64,000 nt of DNA from an uncultured Candidatus Saccharibacteria bacterium (GTDB lineage Bacteria; Patescibacteriota; Minisyncoccia; Phycocordibacterales; UBA5272), in NCBI GenBank assembly GCA_964457775.1, contig CAYWEW010000005.1:5398-69397 (forward strand), read 5' to 3'. The translations under genes were made by a program, and so were the position numbers. Positions 13,287 through 57,481 of this stretch are shown here, piece after piece (position 1 is the first letter of the stretch; each line of letters opens with the position of its first letter). The notes under the pieces are model-generated. The model did no database searches, was not told the origin of the DNA, and worked only from the letters and a program-made list of their open reading frames with translations.

Positions 13287-13362
13287 GCCGCTTTAGCTCA
13301 GTTGGTAGAGCAACGGTTTTGTAAACCGTAGGTCCACAGTTCGAATCTGTGAAGCGGCTCCA
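13287..13362 (+). tRNA. tRNA-Thr (anticodon UGU)
   Basis: Acceptor GCCGCTT/AAGCGGC, D-arm GCTCAGTTGGTAGAGC, anticodon loop ttTGTaa, T-arm GGTCCACAGTTCGAATCTGTG, CCA encoded. Confidence 0.8.
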
Positions 13363-13421
13363 ATAATAAGCGGAGCTTATTATGGTGATGCTTCAGCAAG
13401 ACAACTGCTTGTCTTGCGACA

Positions 13422-13493
13422 GATTCTAATAGGGGTCGCGAGGTTTATATTTTGAGTTTACGAGGAATAGACCTTGTGACCGAATCTGACAAG
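13422..13493 (+). repeat. tRNA-trailer repeat module (GATTCNAATA-GGGGTCGCGA...GTGACC-GAATC)
   Basis: gattctaataggggtcgcga...cttgtgaccgaatctgacaag; related copies at 33894..33956 and on the minus strand at 50095..50180. Confidence 0.5.
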
Positions 13494-17144: not shown

Positions 17145-19496
17145 ATGAAATTCTCTAAATCATGGCTACAGGATTATATTGTTGAAAAACTTCCAGAAGA
17201 TGGAGTTATTGCTGATACTTTAAATAAAAAAGCATTTGAGGTTGAAGAGGTTATTACACTTTCCAATGATACAGTTTTTGATATTAAAGTTCTTCCAAAT
17301 CGTGCGCATGATGCACTTGGTCACCATGGTATGGCTTATGAACTTTGCTCTTGTTTTGGTTTTACATTTAAAAAAGACCCTCGAAATAAAGTTTTAGAAT
17401 TTACTGACAAACATATCGCATCACCAGCCGTTGTAATTGATGATGAAAAGTCATGTACTCGTTTCTTAAGCATGAGAATTGATAATGTGACAGTGGGTGA
17501 TAGCCCAGAGTGGTTGAAGAATAGATTAGAAGCAATCGGACAACGCAGTATTAATAATATTGTTGACGCAACCAATTATGTACAATTCGCACTCAATAAA
17601 CCAATGCACGCATATGATGTAAGAAGTGTTAAAGGATCACTTCGTGCGCGCTTTGCTAAAACTGGAGAAGCACTCACAACTCTTGATGGTAAAGAATTAA
17701 CTTTGAACGAGAAGACTCTTGTAATTTCTGATGATGAAAAGGTGCTTGGTCTAGCAGGAATAAAAGGGGGTAAATTTAGTGGAATACAACCCGACACTAA
17801 AAGTATTCTTCTTGAAAGTGCTAATTTTGAACCTACACTTATTCGCAAGACATCACAAAGTTATAATATTCACACTGATGCATCAAAGCGTTTTGAAAAC
17901 GGTATAGCAAACTCACTTTCAATTGAAGGGTTGTATATGACCGCTAATTTGATAAAGGAAATTTGTAGTGATGCTAAAGCGAGTGAACCAACAGATATTT
18001 ATCCTGAAAAGGATACAGCTTACTATGTCGGTGTTTCTCTTCTTGAGATAAATGAAATTCTTGGTACTTCTTACTCGGACGACGAGATTAAAAATACTCT
18101 CAATGGCATGTCACTTCCTTTTGAAATAGTTGTTCCAGAAACATATATAGAAGAAACATACAAAACATTAGTAGGGTCAGTATACAAAAACCCTTCAAGT
18201 ATGAGACGTGATGCACCACAAGCCTTTAGTTGTTCTTCACTCATTAGTTATCTATATAAAGGTGTATGGATGCCGAGTCTTTCCGTTGATAAATATGTTT
18301 TTTCAAAAAAGATAACAAAAGATGATTTAAAATTCGGTGACCTTATTTTTACTAATAGTGGGGAAGGAAATATTAGATATGAATCAGTAGAATTTTTGCG
18401 AGGCACAAAAGTACCTGCTGGGGTAGACCATGTTGCTATGTATTGTGGCGATGGAAAAGTTATTCATGCAACGAAAGTTCACGGTGTTGTAGTTATTGAA
18501 ACTCTCGAGGACTTCTCAATTCGTCGTACTATAGTTGGGTATGGAAGAGTAGCTGACAATTTGGATGAGGAAAGATACGTAGTGCGTGTTCCGTCTGTGC
18601 GTTTAGATTTAAGAATCAAGGAAGATTTGGCGGAAGAAATTGGACGTATTATTGGATATGAGAAACTTGTACCAACTTTGCCAAAACTTAATCGTGTCGG
18701 TATTCCACATAAACGTATGTATTATGAAAATAAAATTCGAGAGATTTTAATTTCAAAAGGATTTTCGGAAGTAATAACATACACTTTTGGAAATGAGGGG
18801 GAGGTAGAGATTGTAAAAGGTTTAGCTTATGATAAAGAAAAGTTGCGCAATAATTTGGGTAAGGGTTTGCTACAATCACTTTCCCTTAATATTTACAACG
18901 GACCAGTGCTTGGTCAAAAAATTATTAAGATTTTTGAAATTGGAAACGTGTTCGGAAAAGATTTGGAGGTTAGACACTTATCGCTTGCAATCGATGATGG
19001 CGCCAAGAAGAGTAGTTTTACGGAAGAAATAGATATGATTCTTGCAGAAATAAAAAGAACATTAAATATTAAAGAAATAGAATATCAAACAGTATCTACA
19101 AAACCTTATGTGATTGAAATTGATTTTGATACACTTATTTCAAATCTACCAGAATCATCAATATATGAAGCGCCTACGTTCACGTCTCTCCCTTTGGTTA
19201 ATTACAAACCAGTCTCTGCTTATCCGTTTATTACCCGTGATATTGCTATGTGGGTACCTGATACTGTCACATGGGAAGATATCAATTCTGTTTGTGCTGA
19301 AGTATCTAATCCTCTTGTTACTCGTATTGATATTTTTGATACGTTTTCAAAAGAAATAGAAGGTGTAAAAAAGACATCATACGCCTTTCGTTTAGTATTT
19401 CAAAGTTATGAAAAAACATTAACTGATGATGAAGTGAATATAATGATGGGGGATTATTATCAGGTTTTGAAAGATAGAGGGTACGAAATTAGATAA
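17145..19496 (+). CDS. pheT: Phenylalanine--tRNA ligase beta subunit with an inserted NlpC/P60-like module in the B5 domain
   Basis: B1 and B3/4 (VLPNRAHDALGHHGMAYEL), B5 (LLEINEILGTSYSDDEIKNTLNGMSLPFE ... RYVVRVPSVRLDLRIKEDLAEEIGRIIGYE), core and C-terminal FDX-like domain. A roughly 150-aa insertion at about nt 18147-18600 carries C-S-S-L and DHVAMYCGDGKVIHA motifs. Confidence 0.9.
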   Translation: MKFSKSWLQDYIVEKLPEDGVIADTLNKKAFEVEEVITLSNDTVFDIKVLPNRAHDALGHHGMAYELCSCFGFTFKKDPRNKVLEFTDKHIASPAVVIDDEKSCTRFLSMRIDNVTVGDSPEWLKNRLEAIGQRSINNIVDATNYVQFALNKPMHAYDVRSVKGSLRARFAKTGEALTTLDGKELTLNEKTLVISDDEKVLGLAGIKGGKFSGIQPDTKSILLESANFEPTLIRKTSQSYNIHTDASKRFENGIANSLSIEGLYMTANLIKEICSDAKASEPTDIYPEKDTAYYVGVSLLEINEILGTSYSDDEIKNTLNGMSLPFEIVVPETYIEETYKTLVGSVYKNPSSMRRDAPQAFSCSSLISYLYKGVWMPSLSVDKYVFSKKITKDDLKFGDLIFTNSGEGNIRYESVEFLRGTKVPAGVDHVAMYCGDGKVIHATKVHGVVVIETLEDFSIRRTIVGYGRVADNLDEERYVVRVPSVRLDLRIKEDLAEEIGRIIGYEKLVPTLPKLNRVGIPHKRMYYENKIREILISKGFSEVITYTFGNEGEVEIVKGLAYDKEKLRNNLGKGLLQSLSLNIYNGPVLGQKIIKIFEIGNVFGKDLEVRHLSLAIDDGAKKSSFTEEIDMILAEIKRTLNIKEIEYQTVSTKPYVIEIDFDTLISNLPESSIYEAPTFTSLPLVNYKPVSAYPFITRDIAMWVPDTVTWEDINSVCAEVSNPLVTRIDIFDTFSKEIEGVKKTSYAFRLVFQSYEKTLTDDEVNIMMGDYYQVLKDRGYEIR

Positions 19497-33727: not shown

Positions 33728-33815
33728 GGAGAGGTGGCAGAGCGGTTTAACGCACTACCTTGGAAAGGTAGCAACTGGGTAACCGGTTCGGGGGTTCGAA
33801 TCCCCCCCTCTCCGC
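33728..33815 (+). tRNA. tRNA-Ser (anticodon GGA), no encoded CCA
   Basis: Acceptor GGAGAGG/CCTCTCC, anticodon loop ttGGAaa, long variable arm, T-arm GGGGGTTCGAATCCCCC. Confidence 0.85.
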
Positions 33816-33857
33816 AAAATAAAAAAACTAAAGCTTTTGCCTTAGTTTTTTATTTTA

Positions 33858-34150
33858 CGGAGAGGGAGAAAGTGACCTGCGTCACTTTCATGGGGATTCG
33901 AATAGGGGTCGCGAATCTACTTCGAGCAAAGCGAGGCAGATTTGTGACCGAATCCCTCACCCCTCCGCTTTGAAAATAAATTAACTCACTTTTTAAGTGA
34001 GTTAATTTATTTTGCGGTGAGGGAGAAAACCAACCGCTTGGTTTTCGTGGGGATTCGAATAGGCGAATCAGCAGATTCGGTTATTGGAACTAGCGAAACC
34101 CATTCTGACGAGCTTGCGAGGAGGGGTTTTGTGACCGAATCCCCATACTC
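33858..34150 (+). repeat. Two tandem degenerate tRNA-Ser-like units separated by a perfect palindrome
   Basis: Unit A 33858-33968 and unit B 34015-34150 each start cgg(a/t)gagggagaaa plus a hairpin, contain ggggattcgaatagg ... ttttgtgaccgaatccc and end with ..cccctccg or ..ccccatactc. The palindrome is 33972-34014. Confidence 0.5.
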
Positions 34151-45112: not shown

Positions 45113-45250
45113 AAGTCATAAATTGCGAAGCTACTTTGTCGAAAGGCATATTTTTACAGTCGCCGTACTTACACGTACGTCTTCTGTAAAAATATGCCTT
45201 TCTTCGCGTATCTTCATCAATTTCTGACTTTTCTTACCATATCAAAGTCT
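45113..45250 (+). repeat. Intergenic repeat (family C, copy 2)
   Basis: See 27031..27190; also shares caatttctgacttt with 44521-44540. Confidence 0.45.
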
Positions 45251-45384
45251 GGTGATAATAAAGCAATAGATTCCTTTTGGTGCTGTTCACATCTTTATTT
45301 TTTTATACAAAAATTATATTAGTTCATAAAACCTTTTATTATCAATAGTTTTTATCTTAGTTCAATAAAGACTCTCAAAAAAGC

Positions 45385-45412
45385 TTGACAAAAAATATCT
45401 ACATGCTATACT
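45385..45412 (+). promoter_or_regulatory. Near-consensus sigma-70 promoter
   Basis: TTGACA (45385-45390), 16-nt spacer, TATACT (45407-45412). Confidence 0.6.
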
Positions 45413-45418
45413 ATAAGA

Positions 45419-45580
45419 GTTGAGACGAAGTGTTTACTTGAGGTGTCGGTCCGTGGGCCAAACCAAATGGTTTTCATGTAGTAATGAACTCAACCGCATC
45501 GGAATACCAGATGCGAACAGCGCTATGACCCAGATGTCTCCACGGAGGCAAAAGGCGAGCGCTTTTTATTTTGTATATTT
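45419..45580 (+). ncRNA. Candidate small RNA (about 155 nt, identity unassigned)
   Basis: Bounded by the promoter above and the hairpin aaaaggcgagcgcttttt plus T-tract. No ORF. Several internal helices (gttgag/ctcaac, gcatc/gatgc). Confidence 0.4.
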
Positions 45581-45624
45581 GAATTAAAAGAGCGACACCT
45601 TTCGGTGTCGCTCTTTTATCTTTT

Positions 45625-50094: not shown

Positions 50095-50180
50095 GTCGGT
50101 AAGAATTGGCCACGAAACTACTACACTTCGTTCGAAGTAGTTTCGCGACCCCGTTATTCGATTCCCACATAGAAGCCAAG
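50095..50180 (-). repeat. Palindromic repeat module (GGGAATCGAATAAC-GGGGTCGCGAAACTACTTCGAACGAAG...)
   Basis: Reverse complement matches the tRNA-trailer module (ggggattcgaataggggtcgcgaatctacttcgagcaaag). Contains a roughly 36-nt imperfect palindrome. Confidence 0.5.
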
Positions 50181-50333
50181 CAGTTGGCTTTTTCTTGGGT
50201 ATAACAAAAAAAGCTTTGCATATTTTTGTTGTGCACCCTCATGGTCTCGGAATTTTAGTAATTAGGCTCTGTAATGGTTTTTTGAAAGAAATTGGATAGT
50301 TAGATCTAACCCTCTCGGTCGGCTCATTAATTA

Positions 50334-51002
50334 TTATTTAATAAACTTAAAACTAGAAATTACTCTATTCAGAGTAGGGTCATTCGTTACACTAGTATCT
50401 TTGGGAGGAACTAATGATATTAGATACTCAACATTATTTTTTATTGTGCAATATTCCGTAAAACGAATACTAGAATTTGGTAAATCTTGAATTACATCTT
50501 GTTCTGTAAAATTAATACCATTAATAGATGTTTTGGTAAAAGATTTTCCACCCGCCTTAACACGAGAACAGTCCAGATTTTCGCCAGACATTATATTTAT
50601 CACAAATGAACCCTGAGAGTTTTCCTTTGAGTTAATGGGTTGAAATCTTATCGCATTATCATTTGGTCCGTACATATGTTCAGGTAATTTTGTTCCATCA
50701 ACATAATCTATCTGAAATCCATATTGAGGACTTGCATATGTTTTCCATTTTACATCTTGTGATTCAGTACTCTCAGTTATCACTGAATTTATTTGGCTAT
50801 TTTTTGAAGTGGTCAGTGTTGCTTGAGAATTTTGTACTAACGAAACATTATTAGTAACAGCTTGCTGAGTTACGATGGGTGATGTTTTTTTAAACCAGTG
50901 CCATGTTAATGGATTCCACCACGAAGCAAAAACTTGAGTTGTTAATCCAGTGGTAAGAATAAAAACAAAAGAGATTATTTTAATTTTTTTCATATACTCC
51001 AA
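50334..51002 (-). CDS. Secreted hypothetical protein
   Basis: Signal peptide MKKIKIISFVFILTTGLTTQVFA. Confidence 0.5.
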   Translation of the reverse strand: MEYMKKIKIISFVFILTTGLTTQVFASWWNPLTWHWFKKTSPIVTQQAVTNNVSLVQNSQATLTTSKNSQINSVITESTESQDVKWKTYASPQYGFQIDYVDGTKLPEHMYGPNDNAIRFQPINSKENSQGSFVINIMSGENLDCSRVKAGGKSFTKTSINGINFTEQDVIQDLPNSSIRFTEYCTIKNNVEYLISLVPPKDTSVTNDPTLNRVISSFKFIK

Positions 51003-51074
51003 TGATACCTTACTAACTGGTATTAAGAAAGTGATTTATGAGATTTAGGCCTCACGGTCTGTCTCACATGGTTG

Positions 51075-51146
51075 TGCCCTCGGCGGGAATCGAACCTACA
51101 ATAACTCCTTAGGACGGAGCAGTTATATCCATTTAACTACGAGGGC
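51075..51146 (-). tRNA. tRNA-Arg (anticodon CCU)
   Basis: Minus strand GCCCTCG ... anticodon loop gtCCTaa ... AGGTTCGATTCC ... CGAGGGCA. One A-C mismatch in the T-stem. Confidence 0.75.
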
Positions 51147-51760: not shown

Positions 51761-51833
51761 GCTTGGATAGCTCAGTTGGTAGAGCGCTTCCCTGAAGAGG
51801 AATAGGTCCCCAGTTCGAGCCTGGGTCCAAGCA
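51761..51833 (+). tRNA. tRNA-Phe (anticodon GAA), no encoded CCA
   Basis: GCTTGGATAGCTCAGTTGGTAGAGC ... loop ctGAAga ... CCCAGTTCGAGCCTGGG TCCAAGC A. Extended -10 TGGTATAAT ends 9 nt upstream. Confidence 0.85.
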
Positions 51834-51837
51834 CAAA

Positions 51838-51885
51838 ATACAAAAAGCGATGTCACATGATATCGCTTTTTGTATTTTGTGCTTG
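51838..51885. terminator. Perfect palindrome after tRNA-Phe
   Basis: caaaatacaaaaagcgatgtcacatgatatcgctttttgtattttg. Confidence 0.55.
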
Positions 51886-52061
51886 GACAGCAAGACAGAT
51901 TACTGTCTTGCGGCCGGCTCGAACGAAAAACCGGTCCACGAATTTATTTCAAAAAATAGGGTTCAGTATTTTTTGAAATAAATTTGTCGGTTTTTCTCGG
52001 GGTCGAGGATAGGAGATTTTGTTTGAGTCGTTAGACGAAAAAGAAAATCCCTAGCGGTGAC

Positions 52062-52085
52062 CGAGCCTGGGTCCAAGCATTTTAA
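52062..52085 (+). repeat. Duplicated 3' fragment of tRNA-Phe (T-loop 3' half plus acceptor)
   Basis: ccgagcctgggtccaagca vs the tRNA 3' end ttcgagcctgggtccaagca. Confidence 0.6.
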
Positions 52086-56944: not shown

Positions 56945-57481
56945 ATGCTTACAAAACAGTCAAAGATTTTAAAATCAGGTTCGAAGAAAAATATCGAAAT
57001 TATTACCAAAAAAATTACGAAGAAAAACGTAAAAATGGAAACGCATGCAAAACCATTACCAGACCATCATTTTAAAGTGGTGAAAGTAAAGCGCGGTGTT
57101 GCTGGACTCGGTCTTTTCGCAGGAGAGAATATCAAGAAAGGGGAATTGATTATAGAATATATTGGGAATATTTTAAATAAAGAAGAAGCAGACAAAAAAA
57201 CAACCAGCCAATATCTTTTCGAAGTGACTCGTAATAAAACAATTGACGGAACACCTAGATGGAATGTTGCACGTTATTGTAATCATGCTTGTGAGGAAGC
57301 GGCAAATTCCGAAAGTGAGATTAAGAAAGGGCGTGTGTTCATTAAAGCTATTAAGAATATAAAAGAAGGGGAAGAAATTTGTTATGACTACGGAGAAGAA
57401 TTCGTGAAGGAGCATATTGGTCATCATGGATGCAGATGTGCCGCAAAAAATCATAGTTACGGAGCATTATCTAGTAAGTAG
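56945..57481 (+). CDS. SET-domain protein (lysine methyltransferase-like)
   Basis: GxG region VKRGVAGLGLFAGENIKKGELIIEYIG, conserved Tyr (QYLFEV), NH.C motif (RYCNHACEEAAN), EL..DY motif (EEICYDYG), and a post-SET Cys cluster (HHGCRCA). Confidence 0.8.
   Translation: MLTKQSKILKSGSKKNIEIITKKITKKNVKMETHAKPLPDHHFKVVKVKRGVAGLGLFAGENIKKGELIIEYIGNILNKEEADKKTTSQYLFEVTRNKTIDGTPRWNVARYCNHACEEAANSESEIKKGRVFIKAIKNIKEGEEICYDYGEEFVKEHIGHHGCRCAAKNHSYGALSSK

Follow-up and report, generated by a model that had tools for sequence, protein, structure and literature searches.

A structured element behind the tRNA genes of the window

The DNA analysed here (the window) is a stretch of 64,000 nucleotides (nt) from an uncultured Candidatus Saccharibacteria bacterium (assembly GCA_964457775.1, contig CAYWEW010000005.1). 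It is ordinary chromosome, encoding aminoacyl-tRNA synthetases, Mur ligases, GyrB, SecA, S2, EF-Ts, RF, LepA and BipA, and it holds four tRNA genes, located with both ARAGORN and Rfam, that are associated with copies of a non-coding repeat, hereafter the unit (Table 1). Exact matches to the motif GGGGTCGCGA lie at 13432 (+), 33905 (+) and 50143 (−), and with up to one mismatch the motif occurs four times against 0.39 expected, a count that none of 100 shuffles reached. A second motif, GTGACCGAATC, is exact at 13476, 33944 and 34131, all on the plus strand (0.52 expected from shuffles, none reaching the observed count). The initial annotation of this DNA had placed a shared motif at three sites, and all three are there, with the motif enriched over shuffles. 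The units are larger than the box drawn in that annotation, which overlooked an upstream hairpin of 9 bp with a CYGC loop. The motif is the conserved core of a multi-copy family of structured elements of 95–200 nt.

The copy on the reverse strand at 50.1 kb has diverged (GAATAACGGGGTCGCGA ... CGTGGCCAATTC) and is still recognised by a covariance model built from other copies (E = 3.5e-11). Its parent is probably tRNA-Arg(cct), judging from arm similarity by eye and from loci L013 and L020 (loci of relatives are cited by L number), where a unit directly trails this tRNA. Two more units in the window are of variant type, namely unit B, which follows unit A at the tRNA-Ser locus, and the unit after tRNA-Phe. 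Since a type III unit also trails tRNA-Phe, and the 50.1-kb copy would be that of tRNA-Arg(cct), all four tRNAs of the window have a unit.

Table 1. tRNA genes, spacers and units of the 64-kb window, with the parts of each unit.
Feature	Position	Strand	Evidence or remark
tRNA-Thr(tgt)	13287..13362	+	ARAGORN; Rfam tRNA, 74 bits
Spacer mini-hairpin AAUAAUAAGC-GGA-GCUUAUUAU, tRNA-Thr to unit	13362..13385	+	sequence; spacer also in L016
Type I unit after tRNA-Thr	13393..13493	+	covariance model 81.2 bits; fold z = −5.0
tRNA-Thr unit, P2 GCAAGACAA-CUGC-UUGUCUUGC	13396-13417	+	
tRNA-Thr unit, P3 5' strand / 3' strand GAAUCUG	13420-13427 / 13482-13488	+	
tRNA-Thr unit, AAUAGG loop	13428-13433	+	
tRNA-Thr unit, core helix GGUCGCGA / UUGUGACC	13434-13441 / 13474-13481	+	
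tRNA-Thr unit, apical hairpin	13442-13473	+	
tRNA-Ser(gga)	33728..33815	+	ARAGORN, Rfam
A/T-rich palindromic, terminator-like spacer after tRNA-Ser	33816..33857	+	inverted repeat I2
Type I unit A	33858..33968	+	covariance model 94.2 bits; minimum free energy −57.6 kcal/mol, z = −6.3
Unit A, 5' arm CGGAGAGGGAG	33858-33868	+	
Unit A, P2	33868-33889	+	
Unit A, P3 GGGGAUUCG / CGAAUCCC	33892-33900 / 33949-33956	+	
Unit A, AAUAGG loop	33901-33906	+	
Unit A, core helix	33907-33914 / 33942-33949	+	
Unit A, apical hairpin	33915-33941	+	
Unit A, 3' arm UCACCCCUCCGC	33957-33968	+	
Second palindromic spacer, unit A to unit B	33969..34013	+	inverted repeat I3: 19 nt, 100% complementary
Variant unit B	34014..34146	+	direct repeats D1, D4; partial covariance match 43.8 bits; fold z = −5.6
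Decayed type I unit, P2 AAAGCCAA-CUGC-UUGGCUU, then GGGAAUCGAAUAACGGGGUCGCGA ... CGUGGCCAAUUCUUAC	50095..50200	−	covariance model 55.6 bits
tRNA-Arg(cct)	51074..51146	−	ARAGORN
tRNA-Phe(gaa)	51761..51834	+	ARAGORN, Rfam
Palindromic spacer after tRNA-Phe	51835..51878	+	stem spans last 9 nt of tRNA-Phe and unit 5' arm
Variant type III unit after tRNA-Phe	51879..52079	+	fold −93.5 kcal/mol, z = −9.3
tRNA-Phe unit, P1 GUGCUUGGAC / GUCCAAGCA		+	
tRNA-Phe unit, P2	51890-51911	+	
tRNA-Phe unit, P3 CCGGCUCG / CGAGCCUGG		+	

Architecture of the units

Read along the strand of the tRNA, a unit consists of the 9-bp side hairpin P2 with its CYGC loop, the stem P3, a one-sided AAUAGG loop, the helix GGUCGCGA/UUGUGACC and a variable apical hairpin. 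The core helix is 8 bp long and contains a G.U / C-G / G.U motif, while P2 stems vary among copies through compensatory changes. P3, and at times an outer stem P1 too, is formed by an inverted and a direct copy of the 3' end of the adjacent tRNA: in the lower stem, a reverse-complement copy running from T54 to the discriminator is matched with a direct copy that begins at C56, and P2 splits the left arm exactly between its acceptor-derived and T-stem-derived parts. Among apical hairpins a small number of classes recur, independently of tRNA identity. Several of these classes carry candidate tandem G.A motifs that appear kink-turn (k-turn)-like: by eye, CUGA...UGAGGA and CGAGGAG/CGACGAG arrangements can be made out in classes d–f and in unit B (CUGACGAG...CGAGGAG), with a bulge length atypical for a k-turn. 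At L030 (1458-1553 and 6446-6700) an insert of two hairpins (GAUUAGUAAAUC and CGUCGRGAGACG) recurs at the tips of different helices, the P2 loop and the module, and looks like a movable peripheral motif.

Within the window, the type I and B units fold much better than shuffled sequences do (z −4.5 to −6.3). The right arm of the tRNA-Thr unit has CGAATCTG in common with the T-arm of tRNA-Thr, and the acceptor-derived part of the unit's arms has decayed. The tRNA-Ser locus runs tRNA, A/T palindrome, unit A, A/T palindrome, unit B. The first palindrome (21 nt, 95% complementary, 33806-33826 / 33846-33866) has a stem that runs into both the 3' acceptor strand of tRNA-Ser and the 5' arm of unit A, and a terminator-like site on the minus strand was reported in this spacer. 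Unit A is closed by the outer stem P1 CGGAGAGGG/CCCCUCCG; unit B keeps P2, P3 and the closing box UUGUGACC-GAAUCCCC, with additional hairpins at the position of GGGGUCGCGA. A reverse complement of the final 9 nt of tRNA-Phe recurs 44 nt downstream without mismatch, and a copy of its 3' end lies 231–234 nt downstream; the unit there has a two-hairpin module, ends in GGUGACC followed by CGAGC, and gives a weak covariance match (51887-51943).

Distribution and linkage to tRNA genes

A pattern scan over one genome per species returned 28 loci and a metagenome scan 52 further loci, bearing out the proposal of the initial annotation that the element is dispersed and multi-copy. All 28 genome loci belong to Patescibacteria metagenome-assembled genomes (MAGs) labelled Parcubacteria/Paceibacterota, Nomurabacteria or 'Saccharibacteria', several of which have 2–3 matches, and every named match across both scans is from Patescibacteria; the window's own protein had matches on short Logan contigs alone. 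From 30 units a covariance model was constructed, and it recognised 43 strong units in the genome set and 59 in the metagenome set, plus many partial or variant matches. The scan of viral contigs gave no genuine copy, only two chance matches in GC-rich DNA that the covariance model did not recognise, on which ground a phage origin was rejected.

The units typically lie 30–60 nt downstream of a tRNA on the same strand. At 23 of the 28 genome loci the unit lies 50–150 nt downstream of a same-strand tRNA, and among the 59 metagenome units, an independent set, 45 have a same-strand tRNA no more than 450 nt upstream (median 55 nt). Overall, 81 of 116 tRNAs, covering 15 amino-acid identities, are followed by a unit; when those used to find the loci are excluded, the figure is 30 of 65, an underestimate because the covariance model misses types II and III. 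Units also occur inside tRNA operons, in the order Cys-unit-Leu at L007 and L026 and Ser-unit-Ser at L019.

A minority of about a dozen units trail conserved non-coding elements other than tRNAs, and here the 5' arm complements the 3' end of the upstream element. Neither Rfam nor relaxed ARAGORN identified these upstream partners of 'orphan' units. One of them, a conserved element of ~110 nt that starts near TGTCACTTTTGTCACTTTTT (GCACGAGAAGGGTCGAA ... GACCTTGTGGGG ...) and is absent from the window, precedes orphan units at L005 (1433-1640), L069 (460-668), L079 (10208-10420) and L084 (1923-2130) and could be a divergent small RNA gene, for example a signal recognition particle-like RNA. A second partner type, at L057 (1796-1900, −) and L072 (632-740, −), ends in ...CC(C)CAGCAACAC; near it, L057 has a T-loop-like box, GGTTCGAGTC, where no tRNA or tmRNA was called.

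Arms templated on the neighbouring tRNA

The link to T-loop-like sequence suspected in the initial annotation is real and precise. Past GUGAC, the sequence of the unit is that of the tRNA, copied from T-loop C56 through the T-stem and acceptor strand to the discriminator. Of 60 tRNAs, 24 have a repeat of their last 15 nt, allowing up to 2 mismatches, in the 600 nt downstream, and none has one upstream; 24 of 38 metagenome units have an exact block of at least 10 nt in common with the adjacent tRNA, compared with 0.1% for tRNAs of other identity. The junction tracks T-loop variants (TTCGAGT becomes CCGAGT, TTCAAAT becomes CCAAAT and TTCAAGT becomes CCAAGT) and is fuzzy on the right, where an A-Y dinucleotide is optional and small insertions occur. 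The sequence of the left arm reverse-complements that of the corresponding right-arm segment including the T-loop bases (AGTCGAA for TTCGACT, ACTTGAA for TTCAAGT), and the arms show compensatory change (UCG/CGA to UUG/CAA).

The 5' arm also complements the tRNA's own tail across the spacer, generating long and often perfect palindromes that enter the tRNA by 9–11 nt. Spacer palindromes with arms of 26–32 bp that include the last 9–11 nt of the upstream gene are found in the window (51826-51888) and at L014 (4253-4323) and L084 (1919-1990). Palindromic spacers also occur behind other RNA-like genes, and tRNA-Gly(tcc) in L014 has a palindrome and no unit.

Two tRNA-based identities for the unit were rejected. 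A tRNA pseudogene or body-replaced tRNA does not fit, as the left arm complements the right arm and is not a copy of the tRNA 5' strand; further evidence comes from L009, with A-U where the tRNA has G.U, from L020, with CGGG where the T-stem strand of the tRNA is GTAGG, and from the Leu left arm ACTTGAA. A primer-binding-site-like antisense to mature tRNA was discarded because the left arm complements the genomic trailer (AC) and not CCA.

The arms could also be read as those of a tRNA mimic or decoy. Much as Y RNAs and viral tRNA-like structures do, such an acceptor/T-arm minihelix would titrate or recruit a tRNA-binding factor, for example RNase P, the CCA-adding enzyme, an aminoacyl-tRNA synthetase, a toxin or a Ro-type protein. 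Intact P1 and P3 do reproduce the acceptor and T stems of the adjacent tRNA, P2 standing where the tRNA body would be, and GGUC..GA / UU..GACC resembles the Ro-binding helix of Y RNAs. We nevertheless regard this as highly improbable: the T-loop nucleotides are fully paired and so allow neither a T-loop fold nor an elbow, pairing of the discriminator and the base after it leaves no free NCCA end, and roughly two thirds of units have a decayed P1 or none. Models of tRNA, tmRNA and Y RNA fail on the units even at E values up to 10, and ARAGORN calls no tRNA-like gene at them.

Covariation and strand-specific stability

When the 43 units are aligned to the model, 98.6% of cells are paired, compared with at most 43% in slid controls, and changes on both sides are seen at 15 of the 23 pairs. 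Such changes affect 182 cells, and 0 of 500 shuffles scored as high; the alignment was fitted to the model, and the sequences are related. The G.U pairs of the core are almost invariant (42/43 and 37/43), and type II modules retain GCGA/UUGU while exchanging the flanking pairs (GGCU.../...AGCC). All 43 units are more stable on the tRNA-sense strand than on the antisense strand, by a mean of 9.5 kcal/mol. The valyl-tRNA synthetase of the window organism is 81% identical to that of L013 and the unit core is identical, at a level of divergence where we would expect unconstrained intergenic DNA to be randomised. The structure is under selection, specifically on the tRNA-sense strand. This combination of compensatory change and sense-strand specificity is what a single-stranded (RNA) structure under selection would show, and speaks against a miniature transposon.

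Pairing in P3 is specific to each unit, and P1 is strong in about one third of units. Acceptor-derived pieces are kept independently of each other, the 5' copy at 16 and the 3' copy at 22 of 61 tRNAs and both at only 6 (controls ~1%), so that P1 pairing is evidently not what selection maintains. Given this independence and the weakness of P1 in most units, the selected part comprises P2, P3 and the module, and the acceptor-derived ends look like relics of the origin of the units.

These observations also bear on a neutral explanation, under which the units are scars of hairpin-mediated (tandem-inversion-type) duplications at tRNA terminators that serve neither the host nor any element. Conservation of the core sequence, P2 and the non-Watson-Crick features across many genomes, pervasive compensatory changes and the strand-specific stability of all 43 units have already largely refuted this reading, which we find hardly credible, even though it would account for the direct-inverted-direct arrangement of tRNA 3' ends around two hairpins, the long perfect palindromic spacers and the independent decay of the acceptor-derived parts.

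Variation between loci and the question of mobility

Units vary in presence, type and number at orthologous positions. At the tRNA-Arg(tcg) locus, recognisable by a shared downstream flank, L006 has no unit, L014 a type I and L024 a type II unit, and tRNA-Cys loci carry one to three units. The initial annotation had named insertion polymorphism as a test of mobility, and these two loci display it, although deletion or gene conversion explains the pattern equally well. Tandem arrays mix classes (three units at L010, two each at L027, L030 and the tRNA-Ser locus of the window). Orthologous units can be nearly identical (L006-4748 and L024-552), while units from the same MAG fall into different classes, with no near-identical copies within a genome. 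The module of a neighbouring L024 unit seems to be that of the Gly unit, suggesting gene conversion.

Beside the decayed 50.1-kb unit, an open reading frame (ORF) of 222 aa (50334-51002, −) with a probable signal peptide and a weak match to PsbP_2 only lies between tRNA-Arg(cct) and the unit; it looks like an insertion at this tRNA, because at L013 and L020 the unit directly follows it. A non-coding segment of ~90 nt (GACCGAGAGGGTTAGAT ... TTCGAGACC ... GTGCAC; 50245-50335, −) is homologous to L021 6310-6399, lies just upstream of spacer and unit at both loci and is not predicted to be structured. The reading of this segment, which lies between the 222-aa ORF and the unit, as a 'pseudo-tRNA-Arg' was rejected, its alignment to tRNA-Arg scoring no better than shuffles.

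The initial annotation interpreted the repeat as a miniature mobile or recombinogenic element. Dispersal, linkage to the T-loop and polymorphism agree with this, while the hallmarks of transposition do not. The supposed terminal inverted repeats (GGGTCGC...GTGACC) are instead the internal 8-bp core helix with its two conserved G.U pairs, and the true outer arms differ from locus to locus, each copying the adjacent tRNA. GATTC/GAATC boxes belong to the T-arm-derived stem, so that the proposed target-site duplications (gaat/aata flanks) fall away; the only direct repeat is the tRNA 3' end of ~20 nt. The window ORFs that were scanned include no integrase, transposase, reverse transcriptase, Cas or Nop-domain protein, no transposase, integrase or reverse transcriptase is encoded near units, near-identical copies are lacking, and the sense-strand fold is selected.

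A selfish or recombinogenic DNA cassette is the main and a serious rival to the explanation favoured below, though on balance doubtful. The cassette would be a non-autonomous mini-element that uses site-specific recombination in the tRNA T-loop, as tRNA-directed integrases do, or a hairpin-recognising single-strand enzyme encoded elsewhere; tRNA tail and right arm would be two att-like direct repeats, and tandem arrays successive insertions. It would explain why a direct repeat from C56 to the tRNA end stands on both sides of the unit, why arrays combine different classes, why presence, absence and type vary at orthologous loci, why module classes are shuffled among tRNA identities and why many copies have decayed, and the sense-strand bias fits a folded single-stranded DNA substrate as well. 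Each element, however, would need the 3' end that is right for its own tRNA, at 15 identities, plus the matching inverted copy. The vertical inheritance of orthologous units, the fuzzy junctions and the absence of near-identical copies within a genome and of genuine viral copies likewise speak against it, as does the lack, both across the 64-kb window and next to units, of any recombinase, transposase or reverse transcriptase.

Comparison with known systems

None of the Rfam 15 models, which include RtT, HEARO, ROOL, ribozymes and riboswitches, matched a unit; the only hits were tRNAs, RNase P and spurious matches of miRNA-hairpin models to spacer palindromes. Full-text literature searches found no description of the family, which is apparently undescribed and new. 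Each of the closest precedents shares one feature with it and fails on others.

The rtT repeats of the Escherichia coli tyrT operon (Rfam RtT RNA) lie downstream of a tRNA, are co-transcribed with it and each contain a copy of a tRNA 3'-terminal segment; they are known from a single locus in enterobacteria and are not known to contain a conserved structured module. The units, by comparison, stand behind about half or more of tRNA genes of 15 identities and combine an inverted with a direct copy, P2 and a conserved core. Like the att duplications that integrases generate at tRNA genes by crossover in the T-loop, including those of integrase-less cis-mobilisable and satellite elements, the units show a direct repeat from T-loop to tRNA 3' end flanking an insert, tandem arrays at one tRNA and presence or absence that differs between related genomes. 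Unlike them, the inserts are non-coding and only 100–200 nt long, occur with matching arms at nearly every tRNA, contain an extra inverted copy and have no integrase nearby.

Being short, multi-copy, hairpin-forming, intergenic and modular, the units recall the REP/BIME, Correia, BOX and RUP repeats and miniature inverted-repeat transposable elements (MITEs), families that are also transcribed. REP/MITE families, however, consist of near-identical copies with defined terminal inverted repeats, target-site duplications or a cognate transposase and are independent of the sequence of the adjacent gene, whereas the units are divergent, have covarying stems and carry arms templated on the adjacent tRNA. 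Integron attC sites are likewise imperfect hairpins (60–140 nt) of which one strand is read; they too have inner and outer boxes that are conserved, extrahelical bases on one side and a variable tip, and they too occur in arrays. In contrast to attC, no R/L boxes (GTTRRRY) appear in the alignments, units adjoin tRNAs and one another without intervening cassettes, no integron integrase is present, the core sequence is conserved, and units sit inside tRNA operons. With tRNA minihelices and tRNA-like RNAs (the tmRNA domain, YrlA, viral structures) intact units share the stacking of an acceptor-like on a T-stem-like stem that matches a real tRNA, but they have no T-loop fold, single-stranded 3' end or D-loop partner. 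Tandem inversion duplications reportedly arise in Salmonella by snap-back at quasi-palindromes and leave a direct-inverted-direct triplication with junctions at hairpins. Their layout is the same as that of the units; we propose the process for the origin of the units only, as it leaves the module and P2 unexplained.

TIGR-Tas systems reported in candidate phyla radiation (CPR) bacteria, in which Nop-domain Tas proteins are accompanied by stem-loop guide arrays, have two unpaired spacers of 8–12 nt between box C and box D (PMC12045711), an architecture that differs from that of the units. They lend some plausibility to a guide-like RNA in which P2 and the module form a scaffold, and the tRNA-identical segment of ~20 nt or the antisense left arm guides a protein encoded in trans to either the cognate tRNA or the corresponding gene, with the universal G53-T54-T55 as a fixed adjacent motif. 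The conserved scaffold stops at GUGAC, directly before C56, where a locus-specific segment of 20–22 nt matching a nearby target begins, and the apical classes offer, by eye, CUGA...UGAGGA and tandem G.A candidates of box C/D or k-turn type. We consider such a guide very unlikely, however, since the would-be guide is paired to its own complement inside the unit and has decayed in about half of units, a gene for an associated protein is absent, the architecture is not that of TIGR arrays and Rfam gives no match to omega, bridge or CRISPR RNAs.

Three more specific structural identities were rejected: a ribozyme of hammerhead or another known type (units contain CUGACGAG but lack the GAAA core and match no Rfam model), an H/ACA-like pocket (the internal loop is one-sided) and a classical k-turn in the core (AG, not GA, follows the loop).

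A proposed structured RNA of tRNA trailers

We posit that the units are selected, sense-strand structured RNAs in tRNA trailers and spacers that arose by local duplication of the tRNA 3' end and evolve by gene conversion, an explanation to which we assign a probability of roughly 0.45. From their context, on the strand of the tRNA and inside tRNA operons, we infer that units would act as RNA and be made within the tRNA transcript. Two alternative partners may be open to the 5' arm, the 3' strand of the tRNA itself, on the far side of the palindromic spacer, and the copy inside the unit. The unit may thereby act in cis on tRNA transcripts, in their folding, the processing of their 3' ends, their protection or their insulation. 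The conserved module probably offers a platform for protein binding. As for origin, the direct-inverted-direct layout around two hairpins suggests a local snap-back (tandem-inversion-type) duplication of the tRNA 3' end at hairpins, after which the units would have evolved by descent, gene conversion between units and unequal exchange between direct repeats.

Several observations weigh against this explanation. The type and number of units differ at orthologous loci, one of which is empty, as would be unusual for an essential RNA, and acceptor-derived arms have often decayed. Because A/T-rich terminator-like palindromes separate tRNA and unit, co-transcription needs read-through or an unseen promoter. 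Finally, no partner protein or processing enzyme was identified for the units, and the function proposed is one that we infer.

Other features of the window

Among the four tRNAs of the window only tRNA-Thr encodes CCA, the other three having C-A-A after the discriminator. Boxes resembling −10 elements lie a few nt from the mature 5' ends of the window tRNAs, which suggests nearly leaderless tRNA transcripts. The RNase P RNA of the window scores only 107 bits, where the threshold is 100, and downstream of it comes a gene-free stretch of ~500 nt (45113-45618), richer in GC at ~45430-45560, that has no Rfam match. A phenylalanyl-tRNA synthetase beta chain (17145-19496, +) has an NlpC/P60 peptidase-like domain (residues 358-457) inserted between B3/4 and B5, and a SET-domain protein of lysine methyltransferase type (178 aa; 56945-57481, +) is encoded in this bacterial chromosome region.

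Implications

Although CPR/Patescibacteria genomes are tiny and streamlined, those of the clade with units devote 100–200 nt behind half or more of their tRNA genes to these conserved, strand-specific folds, an investment that is hard to dismiss as junk. The family points either to unrecognised tRNA biology (processing, quality control or protection) or to a new exploitation of tRNA genes by DNA or RNA elements. It also provides a test case for how inverted and direct copies of gene ends are generated and homogenised, and the palindromes that reach into tRNA 3' ends matter for the annotation and assembly of MAGs. The covariance model, the G.U / C-G / G.U helix and the candidate k-turn-like motifs can serve as baits in the search for a protein partner. 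A bolder and quite unlikely extension is that each tRNA gene has a dedicated partner RNA, consisting of a protein-binding scaffold and ~20 nt sense and antisense to the 3' half of the tRNA. If so, a protein for processing, repair, modification or surveillance could be tethered through strand exchange, either to the cognate (pre-)tRNA or to the gene that encodes it, and the partner RNAs would constitute a genome-wide, tRNA-specific adaptor or guide system that targets tRNAs and is a bacterial counterpart of guide-RNA systems.

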